Shown here: positions 27,669-62,450 of the stretch, in pieces
Numbering within the stretch: the stretch's first letter is position 1
Layout: each line of letters begins with the position of its first letter
Virus record (IMG/VR): IMGVR_UViG_3300042544_003795
Location: 106,054-170,053 of that record
Direction: 5' to 3' (one strand)
DNA length: 64,000 nucleotides
Source: a virus
Translations under genes and position numbers: made by a program
Notes under the pieces: model-generated
Databases searched by the model: none
What the model saw: the letters and a program-made list of their open reading frames with translations, nothing else
What the model was told of the DNA's origin: nothing

Positions 27669-30600
27669 TAAGGTATAGAGAAAGAAGAAACCACTGGAGA
27701 AGGGTCATTATTAAAAGAATAAGCTGTTAAAGTAATTAAAGCTTGATCATTTTCATTAAAAGTAATTTCTTCTATATCATCGTGTGTAATTTCCAGATAT
27801 CTTTTTTGACTATCTAAACTAATTTGAGTTGCGAAACCTTTTATTTCATATTTATCGAAATCAAGAGGAGTCGGGCCTCTAAATTCATATACTGGAATTT
27901 CATCATCAATAGAATTTTTAATTTTTACACTCCAAACTTGATTCATTCTTTTTTTAATATTATAGAATGTTCCAGTTAAGTCCAAAATTGAATTTGCGAA
28001 TTGTTTTTTAAAATAGCAACTTTGCACATAAACTGTTGAATTTATTGTTTTTTCTAATTCTTTAGGAATATTTGATTTTACTAATCTAGAAAAACTAATA
28101 TTAATTAAACTCATAGACTCTTTAAATGGTCTTTCATTTATTTTTGATTTTTCTTCAGGAAATAAATCTACAAACGTATTTTGAGTATTTATTAAATTAG
28201 TATTTTTCACATCATAGAAATTAGGAGTTTCATAAAAATAACCAAAATTTTGACTTCCAACATTTTCAGTCAAATAATATCTACAAAATCCAGCTTGAAT
28301 ATTCAAATCTAAACTTTTATTTAAAAATCCTGAAAATACAATATTGTCCAATTCATTATTTGGAATAGGTGTTAATTTATTAGTTCCATAAGATTTCGGT
28401 ATTTTATAAATAACTCCTTCTAAAGATACATATGAATAATCATAATTTTTATGTTTTATAAATAAATCAATAATTTCATTTACAGCGTAGCTATAAGTAT
28501 TATTATTTTTTAGATAAAAAGTATTTTTTGTTTCTAGAACAGTCCCATTTGAAGCGTATTTTGTAGCCTCAAAATATAATTTATCAAAATCTGTATACAA
28601 TTTCGGAAAATTATTATTTTTTATGTTGAATAAATAAGGTAAAATTTCTTTTGTGAAAAAAGATACAATATTAGAATTACTTTCAGATATGCCTTTATAT
28701 TTAGAATTGCTTCCTCCTATAATATTTTTATCCCAAAGTGTAGCCTTATTGTTTTCTTCAAAAAAGGTAGAAAAACATTTAATATCTCCGCAACTATTCC
28801 TTTTCTCATCTCTTATTAATGGATTGGTCGTAGTAAAAACTCTGTAATTATTATTTCCTTGACTAGTAATAGTAGAAAATTGACCCGGTATTCCATAGAG
28901 TTTATAAATAAAATATTGAAAAAGACCACTGAAAACACCTTCCAATAATGTTCCTTCTGAATATAATTGATATGGAGTTGGAGTTAAAAATGTAGAAAGA
29001 TTTTCTTCTTCTAACTGTACTCCAAAAATATTAACTTTCCATATATTTGATTGTGGATTAAAACCGTCTTGACTAATACTAGAGTCACTTGCATTAACTA
29101 ATTTTATATTTATATTTTCTTCATTAAGTATTTTAAATTTAACAAAAACTCTTTTTATATTCTGCGGATAGAATGCTCCTTCTTTATCAGTATCATATGA
29201 GCCTGCTTGCACTGATTTGTCAGTTAGAACTGCACCAAGACTATTTATATTACAATAAAAACTTTCCCCGCAAAATATTTGAATAAAAGGAACGCCTGTT
29301 TCAGCAGGCAAAGGATCTTGAGGTAAAATATAAAAAGAAAAAGTATAATCTTCTTTTGTTGAATCTTTTTTCGTAAAATTAAAATTTATTTTATACTCGT
29401 TTGTTGCAGTATTCGCTAATGTTCCATAAGATACAAAATTTGGATTTGCTATATCATCAATTTTTACATTTGTTGATAAAGAATCAACTGTAAAATTTTC
29501 CGATTGTGTAGATTTTATTAAATTAGCAGACTTAGAAGTAGATCTATCTGAAAGAAATTCTTTATCATCAAAAGTTATACCAAAATTTATAGAATCTGAG
29601 TCAGAATAAAAACATGACGTATTATCTTCTTTTTTTAAAACTAACAAATTATTCTCATTCCAATTTATACCATAATCAAGTTTTTTTATATCTTGATTGT
29701 CTTCTCTTTTGTAAAAATCATTATACACATCTTCTACATTATCAAATGGAGTTAAATTTTGATAAGTAATTATACCATCCTTTATTATTGAATTAATAAA
29801 TTCTTTTCCTTTATATTCTAACGAATCTGAGAATCCTCCGTTGTTTTTGAAATAATAAGTATTACTATTTAAAACTCTAGTTTTTACTAAATCTTGAGAT
29901 GATAATCTATATTGTCCATTGTAATCTATATTGCTAAGATTTTTAAAGAATAAAGTATCAGAATCTGAGGTTAAAAATATGAATGGTCTTGTTTCACCTT
30001 TCGCTTCTGAAGAAAATAAAATATATTGATCATTTAGAGTTGCGTAAGAAACTCCTCTATATGGATAAATATTTCCAATTTGAGTATTGGTAATAGATGT
30101 CGGAAGATTTTTTGTATGCAATAGAACACTTGACGGAAATATAAATTTATGTTTTTCAAAAACAAATTTACCTTCCATTTCCTCTTTATCTACTATGCCT
30201 GTTATGGGAAAAGGAGTAAAATTATTTGGAATAGCTATTGCCTTGTAAGTATTTAATCTTTCATAATTTAATTCGTAATTTTCAAATGTATTAGGTAAAC
30301 CAGTTTTACCTCCCAAATCTATAAAATAATCTGGATTTAAATTTAAATCGTTTATTTTAGTATTTATTGGAAGGCCATCATTAGGTTGAACAATATAAAC
30401 TACTTCTCCTGTAGCTTTTAAATTTGTAAATTCTCTACTTAATTGTCCTTCTAAAGAATAAAATTTTACATCTTGTATATTTCCTTTTATAGTATAGTCA
30501 TCTTTTGTTTTTTCGAAGTCTGTGTTATAAAGAAGGCCATTGGAAATACCATTTTGCGTAAAAAGAGTTCCAGAATAAGATACATTTATATTCTCTGATC

Positions 30601-31513
30601 CAAAAAAATCAGTGGAAGATCCAGTTATAGTTAAGTCTCCTGTTTTCCCTTCTGTGTATTGAAAATCTAAATCTATTTTAGAACCTTCTACTTGCAATAA
30701 ATATTCTAATTCAAAAATAGCTTTTGATATGCCTGTTTGAATAATATCCCCAGAGTACGCGGAAATATTTGACCATGTAATACGCTCAAAAACTATATCA
30801 TCTGTATCATCTTCTTGAGCATCTTCATTAACAGTTTGAGCATTCTGTATTTGTAATGAATACGACTGGTTCCCAAAATTTGTTTCTAAATCTAAGTAGA
30901 CAGGGAATCCTTGAGAATATCCGCTTGTATCATAGTTGAAAAAATTTATATAATTTCCGGGTTGTATTTCTTTTACATGTGTGAATTTCCCTGTAATGCT
31001 ACTCGAATTTATAGAAAAAATATCAACAATATACTGTCCTTTATTAGTTATTTTTCCGCTTACTGCTTCATTTGAATAAAAATTTGAAAATTCTAATTTA
31101 GGGATAGAGCTTCCATATATAAAAGCGTCTAAATCTACAGAATTCGAAACTGGAGAATCTAAAATTTTAACCACTAATGCGCTAAATATAGAAGTTGGAG
31201 TGGCGAGTACCCCCTCTCTAGTGATAGGAACAGAGTTTAAATAATCTTTATAAGTAGTATATCCTTGAACATAAGATCCTTCGGAAAATGGTTCTTTAAT
31301 ATAAGAATTTATACTAATAGGTTCTTTGTTAAAAGTTCCTATAATATTATCATTTGGATCTTTTATTATACCAGATTTAAATAAATAACGAACATAATGT
31401 GTTCCTGTAATTCCTACTTCAAAATGATCACTAGAATAATTATAAACTTTAAAGTCAAAGTTTAAAGATTTTTGAGGGTAAAAATTCCTATATTGTATTC
31501 CTGTAATTTTCAT
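27668..31513 (-). CDS. Large virion structural protein (tail tip/baseplate region)
   Basis: 1281 aa, beta-rich and Asn/Thr/Ser-rich, in the tail operon. Confidence 0.55.
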   Translation of the reverse strand: MKITGIQYRNFYPQKSLNFDFKVYNYSSDHFEVGITGTHYVRYLFKSGIIKDPNDNIIGTFNKEPISINSYIKEPFSEGSYVQGYTTYKDYLNSVPITREGVLATPTSIFSALVVKILDSPVSNSVDLDAFIYGSSIPKLEFSNFYSNEAVSGKITNKGQYIVDIFSINSSSITGKFTHVKEIQPGNYINFFNYDTSGYSQGFPVYLDLETNFGNQSYSLQIQNAQTVNEDAQEDDTDDIVFERITWSNISAYSGDIIQTGISKAIFELEYLLQVEGSKIDLDFQYTEGKTGDLTITGSSTDFFGSENINVSYSGTLFTQNGISNGLLYNTDFEKTKDDYTIKGNIQDVKFYSLEGQLSREFTNLKATGEVVYIVQPNDGLPINTKINDLNLNPDYFIDLGGKTGLPNTFENYELNYERLNTYKAIAIPNNFTPFPITGIVDKEEMEGKFVFEKHKFIFPSSVLLHTKNLPTSITNTQIGNIYPYRGVSYATLNDQYILFSSEAKGETRPFIFLTSDSDTLFFKNLSNIDYNGQYRLSSQDLVKTRVLNSNTYYFKNNGGFSDSLEYKGKEFINSIIKDGIITYQNLTPFDNVEDVYNDFYKREDNQDIKKLDYGINWNENNLLVLKKEDNTSCFYSDSDSINFGITFDDKEFLSDRSTSKSANLIKSTQSENFTVDSLSTNVKIDDIANPNFVSYGTLANTATNEYKINFNFTKKDSTKEDYTFSFYILPQDPLPAETGVPFIQIFCGESFYCNINSLGAVLTDKSVQAGSYDTDKEGAFYPQNIKRVFVKFKILNEENINIKLVNASDSSISQDGFNPQSNIWKVNIFGVQLEEENLSTFLTPTPYQLYSEGTLLEGVFSGLFQYFIYKLYGIPGQFSTITSQGNNNYRVFTTTNPLIRDEKRNSCGDIKCFSTFFEENNKATLWDKNIIGGSNSKYKGISESNSNIVSFFTKEILPYLFNIKNNNFPKLYTDFDKLYFEATKYASNGTVLETKNTFYLKNNNTYSYAVNEIIDLFIKHKNYDYSYVSLEGVIYKIPKSYGTNKLTPIPNNELDNIVFSGFLNKSLDLNIQAGFCRYYLTENVGSQNFGYFYETPNFYDVKNTNLINTQNTFVDLFPEEKSKINERPFKESMSLINISFSRLVKSNIPKELEKTINSTVYVQSCYFKKQFANSILDLTGTFYNIKKRMNQVWSVKIKNSIDDEIPVYEFRGPTPLDFDKYEIKGFATQISLDSQKRYLEITHDDIEEITFNENDQALITLTAYSFNNDPSPVVSSFSIP

Positions 31514-35673: not shown

Positions 35674-38600
35674 TTAAAGAAGATTGTCCGGAATTATAAT
35701 AGCTTTTTCGGCAGACCAAGAAAAAGCAAAAGTTATAGATCCAGCTGGAGAAACTTTTGAAATTTGAGAAGAGTCTAAAATTTTATTAGCTCCATAAAAA
35801 ATCGAATTAGAAATTTGATTTACTCTATTCCTTAACTGAGCTACTGTTTTCTCGTAAGAGCAACAAACGGGTTTAATCAATGTCCCTTGGATATTAAATG
35901 CCGCCCTTTTTATTATTTTAATGTCTTCTATATAATGACAGCCATTACTATTAATAGGCAATGAAGCTTTTATTTCTTTTAAAGCTGGAACGAAAGAATA
36001 TTCATAAGTAAAATTTTGTAAACATCCACAATCAGAACCTAAACTGTTGCAAAATTTAGCACCTATTTGAATGGTTCCTTCAAATTGGTTCTCTGAATAA
36101 GAATTATCTTTTTCATTGAAATTCAATCTTTCCGTATTACCGAATTTTGTCCATTTTTGCTGCACATAATCTGCAAAATCTAAATTATTATAATATTTGT
36201 AAACATTATCCCATCTATCTTTTTTACATTTTATCTCAGATCTTATAGTCAAATTAGCTTCTATACATTTTCTTGAAGTTATTAGATCATGAGTGATTCG
36301 AGTTTCGTCTATTGTATAAACTTTATTGTCTTGTTTATTTGAAAACTCTAAAGAAAATCCTACGCTATTATTAGAGAAATCTCTTTGAAGAGAAAAATTT
36401 GTGGGAGTTGTATATAGTGGAGAAAAATCTTCCGGATAATATTCAGTCACAGAGTAATCACTCCCTAACTCTGAAAGAGCTTTATTTATATAATCTATAA
36501 AAGTCGGGATCATCAGAAATTTGCCTCCATTCCCAATTAATCCCAAAGTTATAATTTCATCATTTGGGGTAATTAAACATACATTGCTTCCGCTATCCCC
36601 AGCTATAAAATCATTAAAAAATAAACTTTCAGGAGAAAGATTTGATTGAACATATTCGTTGAAAGTATCATCAATGGAAAATTGTTGTGTTTGCTGATCT
36701 GTTACTGTAATTTTTTGAAATTTCCCGATACAAGCTCTTTGAAAAGGGGATGCTTCACTTACTCCCGGACTACTCTCTTCTATTTGGTCTCTGCAAAATA
36801 AAGAGTAATCTTTTAAATCTATAAAATTTTTATAATTTTTGGTGAGAACTCTAAAAAACTTTACAGTATCAGGCAAAGCTTCGTTAAGAACTCCTAATCC
36901 TAAATCTGAAGCTATTTGATTAGGATGCCCTACTTCTAATATAGAAACTAAAGTTCTAGTTAAAACTTTATTATCATTAGTTAGAAAATATAAAGTTTGA
37001 CCTACATTAACAGGGTAATGATAAGCAAATAAATAATGCTTTGGAGTAATTAATATACCTATTTTTCTATTTTCATATCCAGATTCACTACTAGCGACAA
37101 CAAACCCTGAAATATCTATGCCATAAATCCAGCAAGATGGATTTTTTACAAAAGTCAGAGTGGATGTACTAAAAGTGCTCCATATTCTTTTTTGTTCAGT
37201 CGTTCCAGTTAATCCTGCTACTCTTTGAGATATTCTAGATGAAAAATTAGGATATTTAAATTCTTTTGATTCCGTAAGATACATTTCATTAGCTGTTGAA
37301 TACCAATCTTTAGTTGATATATCATATTTAATAGCTTCTAATGTGCTATCTTTAGAAGAAATTTCATTCAATCCTTTAGCTAATAATGGACCTTGGTGAG
37401 TTCCATCTATTTTGACTGAAACTTCTCCATTTTCAGAAATAGACATATCTCTAACATATTTTAAAATACCATAATGACTTTTAGATAAACCAGATTGTAA
37501 AACAAAAGTTTTAGTTAAAGATACTTCACCTGTTAATCTATTTAAAGTTTCATTTTGAGAAATTAAAAAAGAGTTATAAGAATTTAAATCCGCTGTTTCA
37601 AAATAATTTTCTATAGCAGCTTTCCAAATGTAAAGAGATTTAGTAGCTACAGTTGTATATAAAGATACAGAATTAGAATCTACTATAGATAATTGAAAAA
37701 ATGGAAATAAAGATCTCTTTGTATCGTATGTTATAGATATTTTATACCAACCATTACCAGCATCGGAAATATAATGGTTAATGTAAGAAGTCGCTTTATT
37801 TTCATCTACATAAATAGATCCTTTCTGTCCAGTTTTTATATTGAACCAACCTCTAATTAAATAAGGATCTAAACCTGAATAGTTAATAGTTCCCCCGTAA
37901 ACATAAGGAGTAGTAGTTGTATTAGCATATGATATTGAAGTACTTGTAGAACCGGTAACTACAAAAGTCCCATTGTATCCAGATGGATTAATATTCTCTA
38001 CAGTAACTGTAGTCCCAACCGATATAGTTCCTGATCCAGCTAAATATGTTATAGTAGCTGTAATTCCATTTCCACTTGCTCCAGTAACTCTAAATTTTTC
38101 AAAACCGAATGATAAAGTAACCCATTCCGCTGTTACTGCTTTGACGTATATAGATGTTTTATATCTTCCTGAAGTAGTAGAACCATCTCCCGGATTTATT
38201 ATACTCCCTTTTATAAGATTCAATCCATTGGAAGGGCAAGCAATTCCGTCAGCTGTTAGAGATCCATCAGGAGCCAAAGTATCATTGGGCAAAACGCCCA
38301 TATTTACTGTTTTCCAATATGTGTCATTATCAAATGCGCTTTCTGATATAAGAATATTACTCTCATTTATTAAACTTGAGTAAGTTAAGTAAAGATTATT
38401 TAAATCAGAACTTAATAAATTAGAGTTAGAAGCTACAAAATTTTTAGCATTTTGAAAACCACCTTGTGTTTTATTTAATCCTTTGCAAGAACATGAAAGT
38501 GTTATATTTATTGTGTTGTCAGGAGAGACTTCTAATCCTAAATTTCTTTTAGGCTCTATTATTCCATAATTTTCAAAATATCCTTTTTTAAAACATTCTA

Positions 38601-39036
38601 TATTTATAGTATAGGGCACCCAATCGTACCATTTGTTGTCATCAAAACTTATAGATTTGATTATGCAATTTTCCCATTCTTCGACATTCTCGTAGCCTAC
38701 TATACCTTGTATACCTTGAATACCCTGTACACCTTGTACCCCTCTATTTTCTATTAATTGTAACTTTTTAAAATTTTTAGAGAATTTGGAAACAAGCAAA
38801 TCTGCTACATTTTTAATCCCTTCGAATCCAGATTCGCAAGGATTATAATATGAGCCTGTCGCTCCAGTTACTGAAATCGGATAATTTCTTTTTATTCTCC
38901 CTGTTAAAGATAAATTGTCTACTAAATTTATATCAGAATTAGAATAGATATTCTGAACATCTCTTGATATAAAAGGTGTTGGACCTATATTAGAAAAAAT
39001 ATCTTCCGAATCGTATAAAACTTTAACTTCACTCAT
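35674..39036 (-). CDS. Tail protein with inserted carbohydrate-binding-like domains and a trypsin-fold serine protease domain
   Basis: APDGSLTADG...GNGWYKISI domain; GILITPKHYLFAYHY (His), SDLGLG (Asp), GDSGS (Ser). Confidence 0.7.
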   Translation of the reverse strand: MSEVKVLYDSEDIFSNIGPTPFISRDVQNIYSNSDINLVDNLSLTGRIKRNYPISVTGATGSYYNPCESGFEGIKNVADLLVSKFSKNFKKLQLIENRGVQGVQGIQGIQGIVGYENVEEWENCIIKSISFDDNKWYDWVPYTINIECFKKGYFENYGIIEPKRNLGLEVSPDNTINITLSCSCKGLNKTQGGFQNAKNFVASNSNLLSSDLNNLYLTYSSLINESNILISESAFDNDTYWKTVNMGVLPNDTLAPDGSLTADGIACPSNGLNLIKGSIINPGDGSTTSGRYKTSIYVKAVTAEWVTLSFGFEKFRVTGASGNGITATITYLAGSGTISVGTTVTVENINPSGYNGTFVVTGSTSTSISYANTTTTPYVYGGTINYSGLDPYLIRGWFNIKTGQKGSIYVDENKATSYINHYISDAGNGWYKISITYDTKRSLFPFFQLSIVDSNSVSLYTTVATKSLYIWKAAIENYFETADLNSYNSFLISQNETLNRLTGEVSLTKTFVLQSGLSKSHYGILKYVRDMSISENGEVSVKIDGTHQGPLLAKGLNEISSKDSTLEAIKYDISTKDWYSTANEMYLTESKEFKYPNFSSRISQRVAGLTGTTEQKRIWSTFSTSTLTFVKNPSCWIYGIDISGFVVASSESGYENRKIGILITPKHYLFAYHYPVNVGQTLYFLTNDNKVLTRTLVSILEVGHPNQIASDLGLGVLNEALPDTVKFFRVLTKNYKNFIDLKDYSLFCRDQIEESSPGVSEASPFQRACIGKFQKITVTDQQTQQFSIDDTFNEYVQSNLSPESLFFNDFIAGDSGSNVCLITPNDEIITLGLIGNGGKFLMIPTFIDYINKALSELGSDYSVTEYYPEDFSPLYTTPTNFSLQRDFSNNSVGFSLEFSNKQDNKVYTIDETRITHDLITSRKCIEANLTIRSEIKCKKDRWDNVYKYYNNLDFADYVQQKWTKFGNTERLNFNEKDNSYSENQFEGTIQIGAKFCNSLGSDCGCLQNFTYEYSFVPALKEIKASLPINSNGCHYIEDIKIIKRAAFNIQGTLIKPVCCSYEKTVAQLRNRVNQISNSIFYGANKILDSSQISKVSPAGSITFAFSWSAEKAIIIPDNLL

Positions 39037-40733
39037 TATATTAATATGTTATCACTTTCAATTTTCTTTGTATAATAGTAATCAAAAGTAGCATTGAATG
39101 TGTTTTCGAAAGGATTAAAAGTATAATTCATATTTTTCAAAAAAACATTTTCAGCATAAACTCCCGATATAACTGTAGGTTTTTCAACTTTAGTAAAACA
39201 CTCTGTTAAGTAATCTTCTATTTGTAAATTAGGTTTGCCTATAATTTTTATGGAATTAGAATAGGAACCTTCTGAAGATTGTCCAGCTGATTGAATTATT
39301 TCATTTGAATTCGGCACAAGAAATTTATTATAAATGTGAACAGGTTTACTGTCTGAAATAGAATTAGTACAAAGAATAAAATTAGAATTTTCAGAATAAT
39401 AAGATGGATTATTTGAATAAGTATTACTATAAGAAATTTCGCCATCAAACTCCTTGTAAGAAGTCGATTTATTATTTAAATAAAAATTGCCAGTTGGTTT
39501 GCATAAAAATTTATTTACTTTACTAGCCAAAGAAAATGTTCCACTTATTCTAGAGTAAATTTCTGGATAGCCTCCTGTGTAACCCGATAGTGCTAGATTA
39601 AATCTTTTTTCTTTATTTTGTGATCTACCTATATAAGAACCATTCTCTTCTATAGTGAAATAACCGTCTTCGTCTTTAGATGAAGATCTGGAATTGTTAA
39701 ATATATAACCTGAATTTAAATATTGAGGATCATTAGTGTAAGAATAATTATATTGAACAGTTCCTTCTAATGGGTCTTCTTGTAAAGTTTTAGAAATTTC
39801 TGGATAAATCAAACTACAGGTTCCTGTATAAACATTCTGAAATCCTGTAATCAAATTAAAAGAACCTGATACTCTTTCATAAATTCCTGTTCTAACTGTA
39901 TCCCATCTTGTTCTTGCTCCCATTAAGTTTCTTTCTATACCATCTCCACTAAATAAAATAGATTTTAAAGTTCCATTCTCTGAGGCTACTATATTATTAC
40001 CATTGAAATCTACTGAATGAGAAAATTCCCATGTCGCTGAATTATTATTATCATAATAACTTCTTTTAGTAAGTGAATACTCATTGTTAATAGTATCACA
40101 ACTTTCATTTGAATATGTTATATATCCGCTATAAATATTTCCAGTTATAATAGATGGAAATATACTTTCGATTCCTATATTCGGAATTCTATATTGAGAA
40201 AATCCTGAGAATATTTTATTTTTTAAATTTATTCTTGAATTTAAATCTAAAGGACTATCAATAGAAACAGAAATTTCTTGAGCTGTTTCTTGAATACCAT
40301 TCGCATTCATTGAAATTGAAAATGATTCGTCTATAGATTTAACATATTTAAAATCGTTTTGAAAAATGCTTTTATCTATTTCTAGATAATTATTGCCAGT
40401 TAAATTATATAGATTGCCAGAAGAGGGAATTTCAAAATTTAATGAAAAAACTTTATATTGCAAATCATTTCCTTCCTCCCAATTTAAAGAAGTTATTTTT
40501 CCTGTACCCAAATTAATACCATGCAATACAAAACTAGAATATCCAAATCCTGATTCTATAATATTTTTCATGCCTGTATATGCTACAGAAATAGAATTTA
40601 AATTGGAATCTCCTGTTACTCTAGATCTTATAGAATAACTATCCAATGATGAGAAACAGAATATATTTCCTAAAAAATTAAAAGTTTTACTAAAAGAAAG
40701 AGATTCTATATCATTGAAATATAAAGTATTCAT
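39036..40733 (-). CDS. Tail protein immediately after the TMP (distal-tail/hub-like)
   Basis: Position; internally repeated beta-rich units; N-terminus similar to that of 35674..39036. Confidence 0.55.
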   Translation of the reverse strand: MNTLYFNDIESLSFSKTFNFLGNIFCFSSLDSYSIRSRVTGDSNLNSISVAYTGMKNIIESGFGYSSFVLHGINLGTGKITSLNWEEGNDLQYKVFSLNFEIPSSGNLYNLTGNNYLEIDKSIFQNDFKYVKSIDESFSISMNANGIQETAQEISVSIDSPLDLNSRINLKNKIFSGFSQYRIPNIGIESIFPSIITGNIYSGYITYSNESCDTINNEYSLTKRSYYDNNNSATWEFSHSVDFNGNNIVASENGTLKSILFSGDGIERNLMGARTRWDTVRTGIYERVSGSFNLITGFQNVYTGTCSLIYPEISKTLQEDPLEGTVQYNYSYTNDPQYLNSGYIFNNSRSSSKDEDGYFTIEENGSYIGRSQNKEKRFNLALSGYTGGYPEIYSRISGTFSLASKVNKFLCKPTGNFYLNNKSTSYKEFDGEISYSNTYSNNPSYYSENSNFILCTNSISDSKPVHIYNKFLVPNSNEIIQSAGQSSEGSYSNSIKIIGKPNLQIEDYLTECFTKVEKPTVISGVYAENVFLKNMNYTFNPFENTFNATFDYYYTKKIESDNILI

Positions 40734-40756: not shown

Positions 40757-43700
40757 CTAACCTGTTGTTGCTGGAGGCGCTTTGGTAGGAGGAGCAGCTG
40801 GAGGCGGTTTCCCCGCTGCACTAGCCACTTCTCTATTATGCTGTTCAACCATACCTATAATAGATGGTTTTAATTTTTCTATCATTTCAGGTGTAATCCC
40901 TTCTCCTGTTATATTCACACTTATCTGAGATGTAGTATTTACATTCGTAGTATTTACAACTCCTTGAGCACCTTGAGCGTTTTGACCTTCAGCTGCACCT
41001 TCTGTCGCGGCTCCTTGAGCATTAGTAAGTCCAGTCACAGCATCTACAAGAGGTTTTATAACTGCTCCTAGTTTATTCTCTTCCTCTTTTGTTTGAGCTA
41101 TTTGTTTTTCTATTTGAGCTTTTTTACTCTTTTCATCTTTTACGTTTCCAACATTATTTAAATCTTCAAAAGTTTGACCTTCTTTTTTTGGTATAACTTT
41201 ATTATAAGCATTTTTCAAAGCTCCACCTGTTTGTTCATCGGCCTCCTCTGCTGTAACCTCTCCTCGTATAAACTTATTAATGAAATCTGATTTTTTTCCG
41301 TCATTATCCGGCCCCATATCAGCCATTGCTTCAAAGCCTACTTTACTTCTATCTCTTCTTTTCGCCTCTATATCTGCTATATTTTTATTTATAGGATCTA
41401 ACTGAGCTTCTTGATCTTGTCTCTCTACAACTTTAGCATTATAAGCTTGAACTTTTTTCTTGTCTTCTGGTTTTTGTATTTGATCCATGATAACAGGAGC
41501 TACTTGACCTTTAAATAGTTCATTGTTTATAGCTCCCATGTTCTGATCTGTAGCCCGAGCTACATCTTCAGTACCTTTTTTTACTTCACCTCTTAATTGG
41601 GTTTCTTTTTCAGTATTTTTAGCTTTAGCCTGTAGCTCTTTCATTCTCTCTCTTTTCACTATATCCAAACCATCTTGTGGATCTGCTAATATTTTTGTAT
41701 CAGTCGCTTCTCTTGATTCTAATTCAGTTTTTCTAGCAATCTGTCCTTCACTAAGAGGCCCCATACGATCTAACTCCCTTAAATCTTGAAGCTCTAATTT
41801 ATTGTCTTTAGCTTCTTTTCTAGTGTCTAATGTTTTTGCATCTGTAGCCTCTGTTAATTCTAATTGTTCTTTTCTTTTTTTATCACTATCAGTAAGAGTT
41901 CCGTAAGGCTCTTTAGCTCTTAAAATATTAAGTTCTTTTCTATTACTTTCAGCTTTATCAAAACTTCTAGTTTCATCTTCAAGACCAGTAAGTTCTGTTT
42001 TTTCGTCTGCTGTAAGAGTTTTTCCTTTAAGAGAATCTAACTCAGTTTTCTTTTTATCTAATTTTTCTATTTTTGCAGCTACACCTTGTAAATTTTTATC
42101 TTTGCTACCTTTCAATTTAGCTACATAAGAAGCTCTTACTTTAGCAGGATCTTTAGCATCAGCTTTCTTTTGGGCCTCAGCTATCAATTGATCTTCTGAT
42201 AAAGTTTTTTCATCTGTTTCTATTCCTTTTCTTAAGTCCGCTATTTTACCTTTAGGATCTAGTCTTGCTTTAAATTCTCCAAGTTTTTTCTTTTTATCTC
42301 GTATATCTTTAGGGTTTACTCCTTTCCATGGTTCGAAATCCGAATAACTTGTTAGCTCCATATCAGCTGAAGATGTAGCCTCTAGTTCCGCCTTTCTTTT
42401 TTGTGATTGTTCGGAAAGATTAGGTATCTTATTCAATGCTTCTAGTTCTTTTATATTACTGACAGATTTATCGTAAGCTGTAGTTTCTTTTTCTAAACTG
42501 GTAAATTGATTTGCTTCATCAGCAGAAAGCGGATTAACTTTCTCAAGAGATTTGATTTCATCTTTTTTAGCTTGTATTCCTTTTTTTAATTCTTCTGGAT
42601 CTCTTGGTGGTCCGACTCCTCTTCTAGATTGCAATAATTCAAGATAACCTTTTGGATCTGCCATTTGAGCTTGAGCAGTAACACTTTTTATTTTATTATC
42701 AAGATCAATTTCTTTTTTAGCAGCCATATTAGCTTTCAAAGACTCTTCTTCTTTTTTTCTTTCTTCTGGTGTTAATGGAGTTAATTGCTCTTTTCCATCC
42801 TTTCCTTTCCTCATCACTCCGTTTTTAAGGTAATCTTGATTCTTTTTTATATTTTCGTCTATTTGCGCAGCATCTTGTAAAGGAGCTGTTCCTCTTTGTT
42901 TCTCTAAAGATTTTAAATATTGAACCGGATCTTCAGCCAATCCAGCTTTTACTCTTGCTGTTTCAGATTTATTTTTTATTCTAGCCGCAGTATTTTCAGC
43001 TTTATCTGATTTAAAACCGGCTAACTGTTCTTGTGCTTTTTTTACTTCCTCGGGAGACATTTTAACTCTTTCGATTTTTCCATCTTTACCTTGTACCTGT
43101 CTCCCTTCTCTCAAGTCTTCCTCAACTCTTTGAATTCTCTCATCATCTTTTTTACCATCTCCTAAAACTTTTGCTGTCTCTTCTAATCCCTGAAGTCTTT
43201 TTACATTTATATCTGTTTCTTGAGGAGTTTTACTTTTTGTTTTAGCTGGTAATACAGCATCTTGAGTTAAAAATTTAGAACTTTCAGTATTGTAACTTTC
43301 AGCAGCAGATATAGCGGCATCTATTCTTTCTCTCTTCGCGGCTAAAGTGGTATCAGATCTTTCTATTTCTTTTTCAAAATTTCGACCCGCATCTTTTTTT
43401 CTTTTAGTTAAATTACTTATCTGATTATCCTCCAGAGTAGTATCTAAACCCTGTTTAGCTTTTGCATCTTTTTTAGCTTGAGCCTCTTTAATTCTTTTTT
43501 CCACTGATACCTCATCCTCTTTAAAAGAGAATCCAGAGCTTTCTACTTGTGAAATATAAGCATTTCTAGCTGAGATTTCTTCTCTCGATCTATCGTTTCC
43601 TCCTTCATCCATTAGAGTAGATGCTTTTAAATTTTCAAAATCAGTTTCTGTAGCTTTTCCGCTTTTCATCCTTTCTTGAAAACTTACTAGATCATCCATT

Positions 43701-46700
43701 ACAAAATCTTGTTTAAGTGTGGCAGCTGTACCAGTATTTATTGTTCTCTGGTAATTTAAAGGAGTTTTTATTTTTTCAACAGCTTTTTGATTATCTATAA
43801 TTCTTTGTGGTTCACCTGCCTCTGCTACACTTCTTTCTTGTCTAAGCTGTACGTTTTTCGCTTTTTCAGCTTCAAAACTTTTATAATCTTGTGTTTGAGT
43901 TACCGCAGCTGATCTTCTTAATATATCAGCTTGTTCTGACCCTCTACCAGTTAATGATTTTGCAGTTATATTAGCTGTCGAGCTTGCATAATTAGGCATA
44001 GCGGCGGAGCTAGGATTCATTGATGTGTTAGTTGCTGCAACACCACTACTAGGAACAGTTGTAACACCAGCTCCAGCTACGCTAGGAACCGTTGGAACAC
44101 TGGCTCCAGCTACGCTAGGAACAGTTGTAACGCCAGCTCCAGCTACGCTAGGAACCGTTGGAACACCAGCTCCAGCTACGTTAGGAACCACTGGGAATCC
44201 AGCTCCAGCTGCGCCTGCACTCGCAGCTATTGGAACATTTGCTCCGGCTGAAGCTGCCATTTGGTTATTATTAGCAAAAATGCTATTTACTCCACCAACT
44301 CCTTTTATTTCTCTAGCAAAACTTTGAACAGTAGAATCTTGAAAATAAGGATTATTAAATTTTTCATCTAACATTCTTTTAGATTCATCTGCTCCTGATC
44401 CTCCTATCTGTATACCTTCTGTAATTTTTTTTATAGATGCATCGGAAAAAATACTACCTTGATTAGATTTTGCTCTAGCCTTATTTAAATCCCTCAATTT
44501 TTGGCCTATATCATCTGCCATAGTTTTTTGCAACTGTGCTTTCCCGGATCTTTCCTCGTTAGTTCTTTTAACTACATTATCTTTGCCGTATCTTTCAGCT
44601 TGAGCTTGTTCATCTTCATATTTAATTCTATCATTCTGCATCTCTAAATTTGATGCTTCGACTAATAATTTTCTTCCTGTTTCAGTCTCTCCTCCGCCTG
44701 ATCTTTCAGCTTTATCTCTTAATTTTTGTATTTTAGCATCTGTCTCTAATACTGCCCCAGTATTCATAAGTTTTTTAGTATATTGAGGGGGACCAGCTAA
44801 AGCACTTTTACCTATCTCAGCTAAATTCCTTCTTTGAGATTCTTTTAACTGGTCTTGAGATATTGTATTTATAGATCTTAAGCCATCGGCTTGATCTATT
44901 CTTAATTTTTCTATACCTAGTACAACTTCTTGATTTATATCAGCTATTTGGGATAAGATTTCTTTTGAGCCATCTGATGATCCTAAACTTTGCTTTATAA
45001 GACCTTCTAAAGATGAAAGATCTCCCCCTCCTTTTAATACAGAACTAGCTTGATTAAGAATATTTGATCTTTGTTCTATAGAAGCATTTTTTGGAATTAA
45101 TGCTGTAAGCTGCTCCACTGCTTTAGAAACTATTTCAGTGCCTTTCTTTTCAGCATCTAAATTTAAGTCTTTTGTTTGAAGACTAGCTTGTCTATTTATA
45201 CCCTCAGCTTCAGTAATTCTTCCCGATGCTCTATCCGAGTCTAGTCTGCTTTTTTCTATTGATAAATTAGTTCCCGCTGTTGAAAAATTCTTATAGTTTA
45301 TCAATGCTGTATCTAAAGTTAAACCTTTCAATCCTTCATCAAAAACTTTTTGGAAGTCTAAGCTAAACCCTTGTATTCCTGTTTGCACAGTGTCATTCAG
45401 ATTTTTATTAAAAGTCAAAAGCGCAGCTGCATATTTATCCATACTTTGTATAGAGCTATCTGTGAATTCTTTATTTAAATCTCCATAAGTTTTACTCGCC
45501 ATTTTTACTTGAGACTCAGTTAGTCCTAACTCTGAACCGAATTGAGTTATAAAATCTCCCATACTTAAAGTCCCATTCCCCAATTTATCTATAGCCTCTG
45601 AAGCTTCTTTGGATTTAACTTTAGTAAAATCTATACTATCAATAATAGGATTTAAAAATGTGTCAAAATCTTCTGTTTTGAAATCTGAAGTTTTAGTTTT
45701 GTTGCCAAAAACACTAACATTTTCTTCTCTAGATTTCTTTATTATCTCAGAAGTAACCAAATTCCCTTGACTAAAATTCAGATCTTTACTCTTCTTTTCT
45801 TGAAAATTTGCTATAGCTTCTTGTTTTTTTAAATCACTTTTTTCATTTAATATCGTAGAAATTAATTCCGGATCTTTAATCCCTCCTAATGATTTAGCAA
45901 ATGTGGATTGAGCTTTAGCTATCTTTTTTGGATCTCCTCCTGAAGTTTTTAATTCAGAAATTTCATTTTGAGATTTAATAGCTTCTTGCAAAGAAGTAAT
46001 TTGAGATTCAGTGGATTGAATTAATTTTTGGTTGTTATTAGTCAATTCCAATGTAGATGGAACAGCAGCTTTAGTAGCTTTAGTGGCATAATTAAAAGCC
46101 CCTGCGAGAACCCCTACAATAGGGGCAATAGGAGCTAGAGCCGGAACCATAGCTACCATCATTGCGGCTGAAGCTCCAGCTGCGATAGATTCTCCTATAT
46201 TCTGAACCTCCTTTTGAGCCTTTGTTTGCTCTTTTCCTTCCTCCGGCGTTGAAAACATCCCAGTTACAGTAGAAGCAGTAAAGGCTAATCCCATCATTTT
46301 TGCATTGATAGCTCCAGCTTTTGCTGCTCTTTTCTCTTTTTTCTCTTGTTTGAGTTCTTGCGGAGTTTTTGTTACTTTATTATCTGAATCGGGTAGATCT
46401 CCGCCCATAGGCATTCCTCCTCCCGCAGGCATTGCTCCTTGTTTCCCCCCCCCTTGTTGACCTCCTCCTTGCAAAATTCCACCTTTCTGGTTCGCGTTTA
46501 GTTCTTTTTGTTTAGCAAAATCAGCTTTGTATTCTTTTCTTATTGAACGTGATTCATTGTTTACGCTTCGTAATCTATTAGCTTTAGCTTTTCTTGCATC
46601 TTTTTCTACTTGAAATCTGTTCTCTATTTGAGTTCTTGGAAAACTTTGCATCCCTTTTCCTGCCCCTTGTATACCTTTCGTAGGTAAAATCGGAGATCCA

Positions 46701-49700
46701 AGCTTACCTCCGGGAGTCATAATCCCAGCTGCCACTGATCTATTGTAAAGTCTATCAGCTCTGATAGAGTCTGCTTTTCTATTCCTTTCTTCTGATCCTA
46801 CAATTTGACCATCTCTATTTCTGAACAATTTGCTTTGCCCTTGTCCTCCTTTTTTAAATGTATTTTCAACACCTTTCGCTCCTACTCTTCTTTTATTAAT
46901 TCTATCTTGAGTAAGATTTTTTAATATCTCTTTTCTACTTACAAACTGGTTCTGTGCTGTAAGAGTCGGCTGATATCTCCCCGGAGCTTGAGGTAGTTTA
47001 GCCATCTGCGCTTTAGCATTAGTGTAGTCAATTTTTATATTTCTCCTTTTTCTATCAGCATTAGCTTTAGCATCTCTTTTAGCTTGATCTTGAGGGGAAA
47101 TGCCTGCTTTTTTGATAGGCGCAGCATTTGTGCGAGAAGCTTTTTTTTCGGCTTCAGCAGCTTTTCTTTTAGCTTGGTTTCTTTGAAAAATTTCTCTTGT
47201 AGCTTGAAAAGATCCTCCTAAACCTGATCTTAGACTACTGGGCAAAGCAGGTCTAGCTCTTACGGCTGCTACTTTTTGTTGAGCAGCTTGAGTTTTATCT
47301 TTTTTTTCCTGATCCTTGTCTGCATTCTTTTGTTTTGCTTCATTTCTTTTCCTTATTTTCTTTAAAGCTCTTTTCTCTTTGGGAGTCGCAAAATTAGGAA
47401 TGAAACCTTCAGAAGAGGAATTAGGATTTTCTCTTGAAAAGCGAGAGCTTAAATAATCATCCACAGTTGGCACTATAACGCTCAAAGCTGTTCTGAGAGA
47501 AGGTAGATTGGCTCTTTGGACTGATGTTAATAGATTTCCTGTACTATATTGAACTTGATCTAAAACTTTTTTAAAAAATTCTATTTCATCAGAAGAAATG
47601 TCGGGAGCTCCATCTATTTGAGATATAAGAAGTGATAAAGCATTTGTAGAAGTAGGAGTATTTAGCATACTTCTAATTTTTAAAGCCAATGGACTATTAG
47701 CCGCAGTTTTTACTTTAGAGGCTCCTTGTCTTACCCTGTTCATTAATGAGGGTCTACGAACAGGAATTTCAAAATTAGGAATAAAACCAAAAGCTGAAGT
47801 TCTGCTTACCAATCCGCTTGAACTATCTCCATAAGTTCTTTTTGTTGTAGGCTCTATTTTCGCCATTTTGGCGAAACTCATCCCCTTGGATAAAGTCTTT
47901 TCGTCCTTGTTAAAAACTGCAAGACCTTTTGGGTTAGATTTTGTTTTTAAACTAGCTCTTCTCCCAATCTTAACATCTTTTCTTTCAAAACCCGCACTCA
48001 TTTCCGCGTTTACGGATTCATTTAAAGCTTTTCTTTCTTGTGCATAAGGAATTTTTGCAGGGGAAAGCCGAGAAAAGAAATTAGGAATAAAGCCTTTTGC
48101 AAAAGAAGTCGGTTTACCTCTCAATCCTAATCCTTGAATACTATATCCTCTACCTCTTTTTTTATTTGGATTTTTAGAACCCCTTATATCGTCACTTTTT
48201 TCGTCAAATCTTTTCGATAGGGGAATTAAATTTCCGTCATCATCATACTCTACTAAAGCAGCTGATTTGATTTGTGAGGCATTCGGAACAACTAGCTCAG
48301 AAGACATAGTTTTTTCTTGAAGTGTTCTTCCTGCTATTCCCCTTATTGAGTCATAGGGTATTTTACCCTCCTTCATTAAAATAGCTGTACCTATTTTGTA
48401 TTTTTCATTTTTTGCACTTCTTGATCTTAAAGTGGAAAGAAGCAATGAACGATTACTAATTTTAGCTATTTCTTCAGGACTTAAGTGGCCGTATTTGCCG
48501 AGTTTAGCGTAAGCATCATTGATAGCTATCTCATAATTGACTCTAGCATTTAAATAAGGCATAAACTCATCAGGCAAATTTCCCGTTAAAGGTTTTTGAG
48601 CTTTTACATATACTTCGTCTTTCCTAAATTGAACATCACTAGCTTTTAATCCTAATGCTTTGAGTCTGTCTTCATGTGGTTTTGAATTTACAGATACATC
48701 TGACCCACCAATAGATAAAGAAGCATCTTCAGCAGTATAATATCCCGGACCAAAATTTAGATCTTTAATCTCTGAACGCAACGGAACCCCTTTATTATAA
48801 AAACCTAATCTAACCCCTTTTCTATTGTATGGGGAATCTTGAGCTTCTTTTTCAACCATCTTCTTCAAAAGATCTGTATTATTTTTCTCTACAGCTTCTT
48901 TATACATTTTATCTTTTTCTGAAGAGAAATCAAAAGCTGGAGTTTTACTTATTTTAGCTAAACTAGATTCAACTTTTTCTCTTCCGTATTTTGCAATTAA
49001 GAAGTCATAAGTTTTTCTATCTATATTTCTGGCAAGATTCTTTCCAGATTTTTTATTTCCAACAACGTCTCTAAAAAATGTTTTGTCGGAAGCAAGAGAA
49101 GGAGTTGCGAAATTAGGAATAAAACCTCTTGAATTAGTTTTTTTGCTATACTCATTAACTTGATTTTTTAAATTTGGATCAATTACATTTGTATATCCGG
49201 CATCTATAATAGTAGCTTTACCTCCAGATTTAACAAACTTGTCGTATAAATCCTGACTTGATTCAGGTACTTTATAGTACTTAACATAGTCCTTAAGCAA
49301 ATTATTTTTATTTTCTTCAATAAATTTTCGACCTTGAGGATTTAAAGTATAATTGGCCCCATGAAGGTCATCCATTTCCAACCCAGCTTTTTTTAATCGG
49401 GCTTGCAAAATACGCCCGAAAACTCCAGAAGCCGCTATACCAACAGAGTCACGAGCCATTGGTTCTTTAATGATCTCTTTCCGAATGCTTTTAGCTCGCA
49501 ATGCTCTTTCTAAATTATCTGGAATTTTAGGTCCTGTAATTCCGTCAACTAGTCTTTTTTCAGCTAATAATTTTGATACTGTAAACTCATCTGTTATTGT
49601 TTTTGGTAAATTAGATTCAGATTTGACGTTTGCTGTTTTTGTGTCTTTTTTTGTTTCAAATCCTGCAAAAATTCCAGCTGACGAAGAGGGTTTTCTATTA

Positions 49701-52700
49701 TAAAATCTTTTTACCCCTATATCCTTAGTTAATCTATGAAATGTTCCTTCTGCTCCGCCACCCATAAAAGAAGATTGGAGTGCAAAATTAGGAATAAATC
49801 CTTCAGAAGCGGACATACCTTTAGATCTGGGATCTATACCTTCTTTTTTAGCTAAACCCATTCCATTAGCTAAAGTTCCTTCATACTTATTATAAGTGCC
49901 AAAACCTTCTGGATTAAAAGGAGTTCTTAAAGAAGGGTTTTTACCCATTCTTATTTTTCCGATAGGTATTCCAGCTTTAGCTTCTTTGGCTCTAGATTTC
50001 TTTTTGGCATTTTGAGTTTCTTTATAAGAAAGTTTTGAAGCAAAATTAGGAATAAAACCACTTGATAAAAAACGCTCTAAACCATTTTCTCTTAGCACTT
50101 GTTCTCTAGTCTTTTTTCTTCCTCCAGTGTTTCTCGGTTTATTATATCTTGCGGACAGAATAGCTTGAACCCGATCTTCATCAGATAAAGGAGCTATTTC
50201 ACTAACAGGCATATTTCTATCCTGTACATCAGTTGGTAATTGTCTTTCTGTTAGTATCTGTTGCTGAATTTTCTTATAACTGTTTGTAGTTTTCCTTGCT
50301 CTACTTCCTTGTCCTGCTAAATTAGCCGCCCATTCTTGAACTTTCCTTTCATCATCGGATAGAGGACCTGTTTCTATAGCAGGCATATCACTGTCCGGTA
50401 CACTCATCCTTTCAGGATAGGCATTCATTGTCATTCCAACTTCTTTACCCATGTTAGGTAGATCCCTCGCCCTAGTGGAGCCCTGAAAACGTAACTTTGG
50501 AATAACTATTTTAGGAACAATTCTTTTACCATTTACTATCTGTGTTAGAGGTCCGGCATTAGTTTGTCTACGAGTTATTGGATCAATATCATTTAAATCA
50601 GGGACAGCTATATAATTGGTTAATTTTATTCTGTCGTATTTATCTGGAACGCCTTCTGTAAAAAGGGGTAAAAGCATTGGACTTAACTCAGCTATATTTT
50701 CAGGAAGAAATCTCCCATATTTATCTCCAACTTTGGGAGCTGTCCAATCTCCAGCTTTAGCTTCAAGTAAAGAGATTTCTTTATTTTCTATAGAATCTAT
50801 TGAGAATGCATCGACTGCGTTATTGCCTTTATTAAATCCGGTGTTTCTAGTCGGAATAAATTTAGGGCCTACTTTTGTTTTATTGGCTTGCTGTATAGCG
50901 TATCTTTCAAAAACTCCAGTATAATCAGTTTGATCTACTTTGCCATCTTTTCTATTTTTATCTTTAAAGCGATAAGAATCTGGAGCAGATTGCAAAATTG
51001 AAGACATTAAATTTCTTCTTGAGCCCCCTTTATCAGGAATCTTAACTTGAACTTGTTCAAAAGAAATTGTACTAATTTTATCATCAAACTCAACATTTTT
51101 ATTGCCTCTAGACTGAGCTAAAGCAAATTGATTCGCAGCATTTACATTATTAGGTAAAAATTGTGATATATCTATATAATCATCAGATTCATCAATTTTA
51201 CTATTTAAATTAACATTCTTTTTACTCTTCGACTTAGGATTATTTATTGGTTCATCAATTATATCATCGACATAATCATCTGTTTGCAGAGCCTTGTACA
51301 TCCTAGTCGCTCTATCTAATATTCTACTTCCAGAATCAGATTCTTGTATTCTCTTTCTTTGTTTCCTAAGCGCTCGTATTTCGTCGGCTTGTTCTGGAGG
51401 GGTTATATTTTTTCCAACTGTATATATTTTTGGTGGAAGCTCTCCTAGCCGTCTATTTATTTTATCAATTGCTTTATTCTTTTTTAGAGAAGTTCTTCCC
51501 ATTGTTTTATCAATAAATGCGGTCCTATTTTGTATTTGAGGTAAATTAGCTATTAAAAGATCTTCTGACCCTCCCGCAGCTAATCTCCTAATTCCTTTTG
51601 TATCTCCTTCTCCAATTGCTTTTCTTAATTCAGTTCCACTTATACCCTCAGTCCTAGCGTCCTGCACCACTTGTAATCCCTTTTCTGTATATTTTGCGGT
51701 TTCATAGAGTCCCTTATCGTCACCTACTAATGCAATACTTCCGGGAGTAGGGCTTAGATATCTTCCGTCTGACACTTTAAAAACAGAAGGTATTCTACCT
51801 CTGAATTCGGAAGACGGAATAACTGTTGTTTTGGCTCCAGTCGCTTTTTTTATTAATTGTCTTCTAAGACCTATAGGAAAAACTGAGGTACGATAAGAAT
51901 GTTTATCGCCTTCCTTAAGTGTAGCTCCAGAACTAACTCCGAATACTATATTCTCTGGTTCGAAACCTAACGAACGAGCTTGTGTAAACATTTCCTTATG
52001 CCCTTCCGTAAATGGGGCAAAAGCTCCATATGCGAATGCAATTTTCTTCTTTTCAATATTAAGTTGTTTTTTAATTATAGATGTTTTATCACCTTCTCTT
52101 TGCAATCTTGCGACAGGAACACCTTTATTTTCAGCCACTGCGGCTATATAATTAGGGTCTTCAGGATTTTTTCCTACAGTTTCTAGTAATGATTTCCCAG
52201 ATCTACCTTGATTTGCTATTGGGTTATCACTAGCTGCTCTTTTTTTAGCAGACTTTATTTGATCTTCTCTGGATATTTGTAGAGAAATTAGCCTATCTAC
52301 TCCTCCGAAAAGTCCTTCTTGTAAACTCCTTTCAGCATTTGACTGGGAAGCTTTTGTAGCTACGACTTCATCAACTTTGTCAATGTCTGACTCTTGTAGA
52401 ATTGGTATTCGAGTCGTTTTTCTAAATTTACTATCATCGCTCTTTTTTGGTATGCCATATTTGTCTGCATTAAATGCAAGAGAAGTTTTTCCTGACCCCG
52501 GAGCACCATAAATTCCAGTAATTCTTTTTAAACCTCCGGTTTTTCTTTTTTGCATAGCATAATTACCTAAATGCTCCCAATACTCATGCGTTTTTGAGTT
52601 GCCAAGTCTTTCCATTTCTGAATTAACTATCTGTGCGTATTCAGGATTAGCTAAAACATCGCCATCTAATATACCAACTCTTCTAGTAATTTCTGCAAAA

Positions 52701-55700
52701 TTCGGAATAAAGCCTTTGCTTGAAAAGTAAGAAGGAAGAGCCGCCGTAGAATTTTCTTGTCTTTTAATTAATGTGTATGGCTTTTCAAAAGATATAGGTT
52801 CTTTGATTTTATTTTTGAAAAATGGAAACTTTGATCTTTTATCTGTTTTTGGCAATTCTAAAGCTTTGGTTTGTAAAGCTTTTGAAACCAAATTATCTCT
52901 AGTTATTTCTCCCGCTTTAACTTCTGCTATCCCCTGCCTCTTTGAATTGATTATGTCCATTCTTGCACCTTTACCAGTTGCTAATACAGATGCTTCTTTA
53001 TTTATTTCATTAAACGCTCTTTGTCCTGTTTTCTCAAACATATTCCCACCTACTTTAATAGCGAATCCATTTATTTGATTTTCGATAGAATCATTCTTTT
53101 CGCCTTCTATTAAAGGCATAGATGAGTCTTTAACTTCACCACGATTTCTTAAATTATCAATTAATAATTTTACCCCATCTTCAGTATATCCATTTTTTAG
53201 GCCTATATTAGTTATAAATTTTGCTTTATCTTCTGTAAATTCTCCTGCAAGTTTTTTCTTTATGCCTTTGATATAATCCGGAGTATTTAATGATACAACA
53301 TTATATTTTAAATTTTTTATAGTATCAACACCAACATCTGCAACACGAGAAGATTGTTCTCCTGAAATTTTACCTGAATATTCGATTGATTGTAATTGTC
53401 CATCATCATTTTTATTATATTTACTTATATCCTTTTTTTTAATTTTTCCTATTCCTTTTCCCCTCTCCAAAGAGGCTTTTGCGAAATTTGGAATAAAGCC
53501 TTTGCTAAATGATCTACGTTTATATTCGTTAATTTTTTCCTTTGCTTCTTTGCTTCTTGCTTCTGCCATGCCAGCGTCCACAATAACAGCTTTGCCTCCA
53601 GCCTTTACGAAATCTTCATAAAGTTGGTTATCTGAGTCATATGATGCTCCCGCTCTACGCGAAGACAAATAATCTAAATGTTTTTTTAAGAAATCTTGAC
53701 CTTTGGCGTTTACACTGTAATTTTCGCCAATTAGATCGCTCATAAGTACGCCAGAATCGTACATCTTACCCTCTAATATTTTTCCAAAGCCATTCGATGC
53801 ATCCCTTCCAATTGACTTAATAGCCATTGGATCTTTTATTATTTCTTTTCTAATACTGCTTGTTCTTACGGATCTATCTAATGTGTCTGGAATTTGAGGT
53901 CCTGTAACCCCCGGAATAAGGTTGCCTTCCGATAAAAGTCTGGATATCGAATATTCCCTTGTGACTTTATCTTGTATTTCTCTTCTACTTTGGTTTTTGT
54001 AAAATCTTTTTACGCCCACACCTTCTGAGAGTTTATGAAAAGAACCTTCTACTCCTCTTCCAATCTCCCTAGAGGTTTTTACGAAATTTGGAATAAAGCC
54101 ACTTGAACGTAATACCCCATTCGAAGACACTTTAAATTGTTCTTGTTCATAAGGGTTTATACCAGTTTTTTTAATAGACTCTTCTTTATGTTTTTTACCC
54201 CCTTTTGAATTTGGAGGTGGATTAATAAAATATTTTTTCTTAGATTCTGGTACAAAACCTTTGGAATTATTTGATGGTATTTTACTTGCTGTTTCAGCAG
54301 TATTCATGACCCCACCCACAGGAGAATTAACAACAAGTCCCGAAGCATAACTGGAACTTAAAGCTCCTTTTTTTTCTGCCATTTTTACTTCAGGAGAAAA
54401 GCCATTAGAATAAGTCGGGATATAACCTTTTGCTTTATTTTTTCCTCTTTTATTAGCTGCTAATCCTACTGTAACAGCTTCACTTACCTGAGCTATACCT
54501 TGTCTTCTAGCCATACTCATCATTAATTCTTCTAAAATCTGTGTTTTCTCTACTAAACTTGTAGTTGTCGCTAATCTATCTACTAAGCCTTTATTGCCCA
54601 TCAATATAGCTTTATTAACTGACAGTTGCATTTTTTCATCAACTAGAGAAGCTTTTTTCAAACCGGATAAAGCCTGAACTGCTGTAAAAGCATCTTTCGA
54701 AATTTTAAATAATAATCTACCAATAATACCTATTAATAAGTATGCCCCCGGCCCAGCTAATGCAGAACTTATACCATTAAGTATAACTTTGCCTATTGAA
54801 AGTCCTGCCTTTTCACCTCCATCCGCTGCTGCCCCCAAATTAAGAGTGTCTAATATTTTATTGCCAATACCCACAAAACTATCTAAAATAGGTTGTACAG
54901 TTACTTTTCCTGTTTCTGCTAAAAATTGAGTAAGATTATTCTTTAATTTTTGCAAATTAGCATCTGTAGTCTCTGTTAAGATTTTTAATCTTTCAGCTGC
55001 GTTTCCAGAAGAATCAGAAGCTACTCTAACAGCTTTATCAAATAAACTATACTCTCCATTTAAAGACTTTAATGTTGCTTGAAGAGTATTGATTTGATAT
55101 ACTCCGGCTACTTGTTCAAGAACGAATGCCCTTTGACTATCTGATAAACTGTCTAATTTATTAGATAAATTCGTAAGGACTTCAATTTGTGATTTAAATT
55201 CTCCATTAGAATTTTCAGTAGCTATGCCTATATTATTTAATACCTCTTGAACTGATGTTCTAGAAAGTCTAGTAAAAATTGTTTTTAAGCCGTTGGATAT
55301 AACTGGAGCTCCCCGAGCAGAAACCTGTTGAACTACAGATATCAAAGATGCAATTTCTTTTAGTTCTATACCAGCTGCACTAGCTACGCTACCAACTCTT
55401 TTTAAACCGTCAGATATTCCAGCTGCACTAATTGCGAATGCATTGTCAAGAGAAACAATACTATCTACAACATCTTCATAAGTTAAAGCTTCATCGGTGA
55501 AAGTATTTATAGCAGCTGTTAAATTCTCAACAGTTTGAGCCGCATCGGTTCCAGCAATTTTAGAAAAAGCAAGAGCGGCATTTGTAGCCTTCAATGTCTC
55601 TTCTACTGACAAACCCTGCCTAGCAAATTCAGAGGCAGCTGCGGCGGCCACATCGAAACTCTGGCCTGTAGCATTAGCAACCTTAAAAAGCTCTGATGAA

Positions 55701-57012: not shown

Positions 57013-57017
57013 AAAAA

Positions 57018-62449: not shown

Positions 62450-62450
62450 A

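Follow-up and report, generated by a model that had tools for sequence, protein, structure and literature searches.

The window analysed here is a 64,000-nucleotide stretch from an AT-rich lake phage genome, a source type indicated by its replication genes and by lake metagenomes. Close to its tape measure protein (TMP) gene, the window encodes a 1120-aa Dit-like tail-tip protein with a trypsin-fold serine protease domain inserted in it. The reading we favour, with a little better than even confidence, is that this protein is an “evolved Dit” which displays a probable adhesin together with an optional protease for cutting host-surface proteins. The initial annotation had proposed that the protease processes the TMP, with digestion of a host surface protein as the alternative; the alternative is now the better-supported reading. 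The protein would work like an evolved Dit; no report of a protease in a Dit was found in the open-access literature searched.

A Dit-like scaffold with two inserts

On the minus strand the genes run from the TMP through a 565-aa gene to the 1120-aa gene, which is thus the second after tmp, behind its own paralogue, and this order is conserved. The genes and the parts of the 1120-aa protein outside the protease domain are as follows.

40757..56044, minus strand: TMP, 5095 aa, with PHROG TMP matches and 9 exact GFIPNF motifs
39036..40733, minus strand: 565-aa paralogue of the scaffold, without the inserts (hhalign P 95.5, E 1.5e-8)
35674..39036, minus strand: 1120-aa Dit-like tail-tip protein, made up of a ~550-aa scaffold and two large inserts
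38572..39036, minus strand: N-terminal Dit/tail-tube ring domain, ~residues 1-155, boundary approximate (from the model of orthologue P0162 and a profile)
37588..38376, minus strand: insert A, residues 221-483, Rcc01080 homologue and candidate capsule-binding module (E 6.1e-17 to 6tb9_F3)
37870..38103, minus strand: small beta-rich module nested in insert A, residues 312-389, found only in the window protein and P0002
37273..37587, minus strand: scaffold segment between the inserts, residues 484-588
35677..36420, minus strand: C-terminal scaffold repeats, residues 873-1120

Related phages carry an orthologue of 505-580 aa in the same place, and alignment shows the window protein to be that orthologue scaffold plus two inserts at approximately residues 221-483 and 589-872. 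The insert-less orthologues align around the protease, which bears out the earlier description of it as an insert in a tail protein, second gene downstream of the TMP. The 565-aa neighbour is likewise the paralogue it had been taken for, without a protease match, and the domain is single-copy within the window. No phage in GenBank matches the scaffold of the 1120-aa protein, and the N-terminus of the TMP finds only matches of 24-28%, to Bacillus and other phages. Verrucomicrobiota are present in the Atlas rows, which are not usable as a host call, and no holder is listed for this sequence in RNA. Single contigs of three lake runs, which are possibly the source of the window, span the 1120-aa gene without differences; these contigs and 15 other carriers of the protease rule out an assembly chimera.

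The insert-less orthologue P0162 was modelled with a pLDDT of 88. Residues 5-124 of the model superpose on the 80alpha Dit with Z 11.5 (rmsd 2.4, 112 aligned) and on the SPP1 Dit with Z 10.6, and the top five VIA rows, at Z 9.5-11.5, include the Dits of 80alpha, SPP1, TP901-1 and p2 and the monocin tip. Because myophage tube initiators come next, at Z 8-9, “Dit or tube initiator” is the safe name for the N-terminal domain. The orthologue profile maps onto window residues 6-211 with E 1e-44. Downstream of this domain lie four beta-beta-alpha-beta-beta repeats without a clear fold match in a fold search that barely covered residues beyond 129. Each insert occupies the loop that follows the repeat helix, the first insert in repeat 1 and the second in repeat 2 (P0162 positions ~187-195 and 287-290).

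Insert A is homologous over ~175 residues to Rcc01080, the head spike fibre of RcGTA (PDB 6tb9; E 6e-17), and matches the tail protein family PHROG 5939 (E 2e-14); it is missing from the other orthologues. The small module nested within it has a weak match to a PHROG virion protein (E 0.002). Rcc01080 binds capsule polysaccharide (PMC10218006), and by homology insert A probably does so too. The module here sits in a tail-tip protein, whereas Rcc01080 is a capsid spike.

Evolved Dits are known from siphophages of lactic acid bacteria (J-1, skunaviruses and S. thermophilus phages; PMC7291167, PMC9437275, PMC10688798). Their gene follows tmp (PMC7291167), their inserted modules, which are CBMs, project ~60 A from the ring (PMC9437275), and these modules aid adsorption, including on EPS-covered hosts (PMC10688798). 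The window protein shares with them the N-terminal Dit ring domain, the gene position next to tmp, and optional host-interaction modules in peripheral loops that are present in only part of the phage group. It is on the Dit fold, the position after tmp, the placement of the inserts in post-helix loops and the homology to Rcc01080 that we base the evolved-Dit reading. Against that class, the fold match covers the N-terminal domain only, and the periphery consists of the four repeats rather than the galectin domain of classical Dits. There are also two paralogous Dit-like genes here, and where the inserts of evolved Dits are CBMs, one insert here is a serine protease and the other, the probable binding module, resembles the RcGTA head spike.

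Three other GFIPNF phages (L141:2001-3518 in G047, L024 and L107) seemingly have one Dit-like gene of 505 aa after the TMP and no pair. A loop of the Dit domain (38701-38743, minus strand) holds a short collagen-like GVQGIQ repeat; in orthologues the repeat is missing, or there is a GPTGAT repeat elsewhere in the N-terminus instead.

The protease domain

The second insert, with its catalytic residues, is located as follows; conservation was measured over 165 aligned domains.

36421..37272, minus strand: insert B, the serine protease domain (residues 589-872; trypsin fold, PA clan, S1-like)
37018..37020, minus strand: catalytic His673 (chymotrypsin 57), 98% conserved
36904..36906, minus strand: catalytic Asp711 (chymotrypsin 102), 99% conserved and invariant in alignment A2
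36592..36594, minus strand: catalytic Ser815 (chymotrypsin 195) in GDSGS, 98% conserved; Gly816 at 36589-36591

The order, spacing and codon positions of the triad are as the initial annotation gave them. An AlphaFold model of the domain, built from an alignment of 149 homologues, reached pLDDT 90 and pTM 0.89, and matched trypsin-family structures with a Foldseek E of 6e-9 and a VIA Z of 17.8 (209 aligned, rmsd 3.8). In the model insert B has the chymotrypsin two-barrel fold; its triad is in order and conserved. The oxyanion-hole motif G193-D194-S195-G196 is present in the window protein as GDSG.

The domain was identified only by profile, Atlas and fold: single-sequence searches with the protein or the domain found nothing in Pfam, PHROGs, NCBIfam or the PDB, and a search for related loci that started from the protein alone, or from P0016, gave none. 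It falls below the Pfam cut-offs for Trypsin, Trypsin_2 and Peptidase_S6, PF00089 matches five of its 149 relatives, and its Atlas feature neighbours carry S6 at just 14%. By fold and triad the domain belongs to clan PA, but it is in no curated family searched. It resembles the S1 proteases of that clan (PF00089; trypsin, thrombin, V8 protease) in the two-barrel fold, the order and spacing of His, Asp and Ser, and the GDSG. It differs from them in its low identity (11-17%), in an N-terminal extension of its own (YVRNxxCW, DLTxxSPWNS), in a 216-226 loop that is very short by alignment, and in lying within a structural protein; it lacks a signal peptide, and an activation site of the Ile16 type is not evident. 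GC and GC3 of insert B equal those of the scaffold, so there is no sign of a recent foreign origin.

Functionalised Tals with inserted lysins (TP-778L, SW13; PMC9437275) likewise have catalytic domains within a tail-tip structural protein, and theirs project outward, as this one would. Those Tals carry a glycosidase and a CHAP domain against peptidoglycan, whereas here a PA-clan protease sits in a Dit-like protein. A search of mostly open-access literature found no direct precedent among tail or virion proteases.

The protease and the tape measure protein

The initial annotation held that the domain cuts the TMP at its GFIPNF motifs during assembly or ejection. The protease and TMP genes are adjacent, the Dit and the C-terminus of the TMP are neighbours in the initiator complex (PMC7291167), and TMP cutting during tail assembly has precedents in lambda gpH and T5 pb2 (PMC12617516; 10.1101/2022.09.20.507954), the catalyst for lambda being unknown (PMC12617516). 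In those papers no tail protein with a trypsin fold is implicated, and the domain here does not travel with GFIPNF.

A DNA pattern for GFIPNFA matched 118 viral stretches, most of them in long multi-motif TMP-like ORFs; the motif is common in IMG/VR phages, each TMP stretch having 1-13 copies. When 86 GFIPNF-TMP contigs, most of which are fragments, were searched with the protease profile, it matched one of them (G029); none of the five near-complete ones had a match, nor did any of these five genomes match Trypsin_2. The 505-580-aa orthologue without the insert is present in sixteen GFIPNF contigs, of which three are near-identical. Because most of the contigs are fragments, it is the near-complete genomes and the insert-less orthologues that carry the co-occurrence argument. 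The one positive contig has two free-standing protease genes at 44.7-48.0 kb, more than 20 kb away from a TMP that starts near 71 kb. At least one other carrier of the inserted domain, L148, does have a GFIPNF TMP. The co-occurrence check across related phages suggested in the initial annotation thus found GFIPNF TMPs mostly without the domain, the outcome that the annotation itself had named as a refutation.

Specificity points the same way. The initial annotation had read the motif as PNF|A and the enzyme as chymotrypsin-like. Ala does follow six of the nine exact GFIPNF motifs in the window TMP, but V, F and E follow the other three. By count, Asp809 is position 189 and Phe810 is position 190, orthologues differ at 189-193, and no part of the protein varies more than the S1-forming loops (50-55% identity, vs 81-87% for the scaffold), while the GFIPNF motif is nearly invariant over 399 copies. 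On these residue counts and comparisons a conserved Phe-specific S1 pocket is not evident. The protease family also occurs in the virion module of a podovirus (MW202510), flanked by an annotated lyase and an FN3 protein, and one phage within the carrier group, P0269, has lost the domain cleanly. We therefore consider TMP cutting by this domain highly improbable. A cutter of GFIPNF TMPs, if any, is to be sought elsewhere: a host protease, self-cleavage, or a universally conserved tail gene.

The window TMP has two degenerate motifs (GYIPTY, GFVPES) besides the exact ones, and the motifs separate enzyme-like cassettes.

Carriers, relatives and a proposed host-surface role

In a tree of the scaffold the protease carriers form one subclade (100/100). 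The insert-less P0269 is nested within them, sister to P0013 (100/99; AU p 0.033 vs holding the carriers together), and this nested position indicates a clean secondary loss of the protease. P0269 lies on a short contig, with its TMP motifs outside the view and its upstream gene order kept. An independent insertion in P0018 was considered; a single origin was not rejected (AU p 0.69).

Asp102, Asp194 and Ser195 are retained in all 16 carriers, though the loops around them diverge. Of the 15 other carriers, 13 have exchanged Gly193 for His, Asn or Ser. Position 196 is Ser instead of Gly in six carriers and Asp in P0268, and P0012 has Asn in place of His57. To judge by these substitutions, part of the carrier clade may have been altered or be in decay; the copy in the window is canonical. 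The same substitutions would fit a domain that is, or is becoming, a non-catalytic pseudo-protease which grips a host protein as a second adhesin, and the evolved-Dit inserts described to date are binding modules. The full GDSGS of the window copy argues against this, as do the three residues kept in every carrier despite the diverging loops and the 98% retention of the triad across the family. Active proteases with a residue other than Gly at 193 exist as well, mesotrypsin with Arg193 being one. We regard a pseudo-protease as unlikely.

Estimates from three genes only put dN/dS at 0.21-0.39 for the protease, 0.33-0.52 for insert A and 0.08-0.23 for the scaffold. In the same three genes dS is about twofold higher in the C-lobe of the protease than in the scaffold (0.9-1.7 vs 0.5-0.8), and this raised C-lobe dS suggests that the specificity-setting half of the protease has been exchanged by recombination. 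P0013 (L145:3958-6597), P0267 and P0268 carry an additional beta module of 60-70 aa within the protease, in two different loops, and such additions would be easier to house in open space than in a lumen. That beta module also matches other phage proteins, one of them with PF17482.

The protease could also mature or release accessory proteins of the phage (fibres, spikes or the protease itself), in this subclade only. A lineage-specific substrate would account for the patchy presence of the domain, and both family members of G029 come after a fibre-like gene. No candidate cut site was found, though, the carriers share one set of downstream tail genes, P0269 keeps its upstream order without the domain, and fast turnover of the S1 loops is unexpected for a self substrate; we think this role quite unlikely. 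In G029 the fibre-like gene and protease gene form a cassette that occurs twice in tandem (L133:6663-11388; 332, 443, 360 and 415 aa), with the 443- and 415-aa genes encoding the proteases and the fibre-like pair sharing an N-terminus.

An exhaustive search (E <= 0.001) placed the domain in an uncurated family of ~1470 clusters. Among 152 domains located in other proteins, 94 are C-terminal, many of these in proteins of ~400 aa; another 16 are at the N-terminus, 20 are internal, and 22 make up a protein by themselves. The fusion partners in 44 longer proteins include, on the virion side, T4-type baseplate wedge, tail sheath stabiliser, tail fibres, head decoration and BppL_N, each virion family matched by one or two members only, and, on the bacterial surface side, cadherin or PG-binding domains; for many members no partner is annotated. 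Part of the family is found among non-structural phage genes, so that the family's link to virions is frequent, not universal; surface display is the common thread of its contexts. One member, P0060, has the domain inside a 1454-aa T4-type baseplate wedge-like protein. A 4782-aa bacterial protein (L146:10001-24349) has two protease copies and FN3/FG-GAP matches, and its gene is upstream of glycosyltransferase and type I secretion genes.

The fusion of the family to baseplate, fibre and surface modules, the patchy presence of the domain and its clean loss in P0269 lead us to the host-surface reading. In the mechanism we propose for this evolved Dit, the N-terminal domain, whose fold comes from the orthologue model, would join the tail-tip ring around the TMP channel, with the two accessory modules plugged into equivalent post-helix loops of repeats 1 and 2. 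By analogy with other Dits, both modules would point outward on the virion. Insert A, a head-spike-type adhesin by homology, would anchor the tail tip to the outer coat of the cell. Insert B, a protease by fold and triad, would clip a proteinaceous cover (S-layer, large surface proteins or matrix) that masks the receptor or stands in the way of the tip, an improvement in access comparable to the better adsorption of evolved Dits on EPS-covered hosts (PMC10688798). The protease would then be a dispensable accessory for host range that one subclade acquired, that was lost again at least once, and whose specificity loops turn over fast. No paper on a virion serine protease that cuts host surface proteins was found in the mostly open-access literature searched.

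A site of action further in, or away from the host, would have the protease attack periplasmic or membrane proteins (e.g. defence sensors) after adsorption, or destroy decoy proteins or vesicles in the environment. Phage peptidases of patchy occurrence are expected to be directed against the host (PMC7824862), and the TMP of this phage carries many enzyme-like cassettes. Against this, the neighbouring insert A is the homologue of a surface-binding protein, and Dit rings are not known to pass into the cell; we find such a role very unlikely.

The envelope-breaching virion enzymes known so far are mostly glycan depolymerases and peptidoglycan hydrolases. A tentative generalisation, which we hold with less than even confidence, is that the whole ~1470-cluster family consists of widespread virion-displayed proteases, the protein counterpart of tailspike polysaccharide depolymerases, which aquatic sipho-, myo- and podophages graft onto different parts of the virion for cutting S-layers or other protein coats; this Dit would pair one of them with a capsule-binding module. 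If true, host surface proteins would join the targets of such enzymes through a serine protease family found repeatedly on Dit, baseplate and fibre proteins, and this family would offer a testable enzyme for how phages pass protein coats. It would also extend evolved Dits from binding modules to a catalytic one.

Other proteins of the window bear on its virion. At 61814-63848 on the minus strand are a LamG-domain protein and a collagen-repeat protein, which are candidates for further virion adhesins. Two genes upstream of the TMP (56138-57734, minus strand) are conserved across GFIPNF phages and have no Pfam match; by position they would be the tail chaperone and the tail tube protein. Homologues of the gene at 56138 are often ~130 aa longer at the N-terminus. 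A 1281-aa protein (27668-31513, minus strand) corresponds to two separate genes in L001 (679 and 594 aa) and to a similar pair in L148 (682 and 607 aa), while L145 and L156 have single genes of 1259 and 1336 aa.
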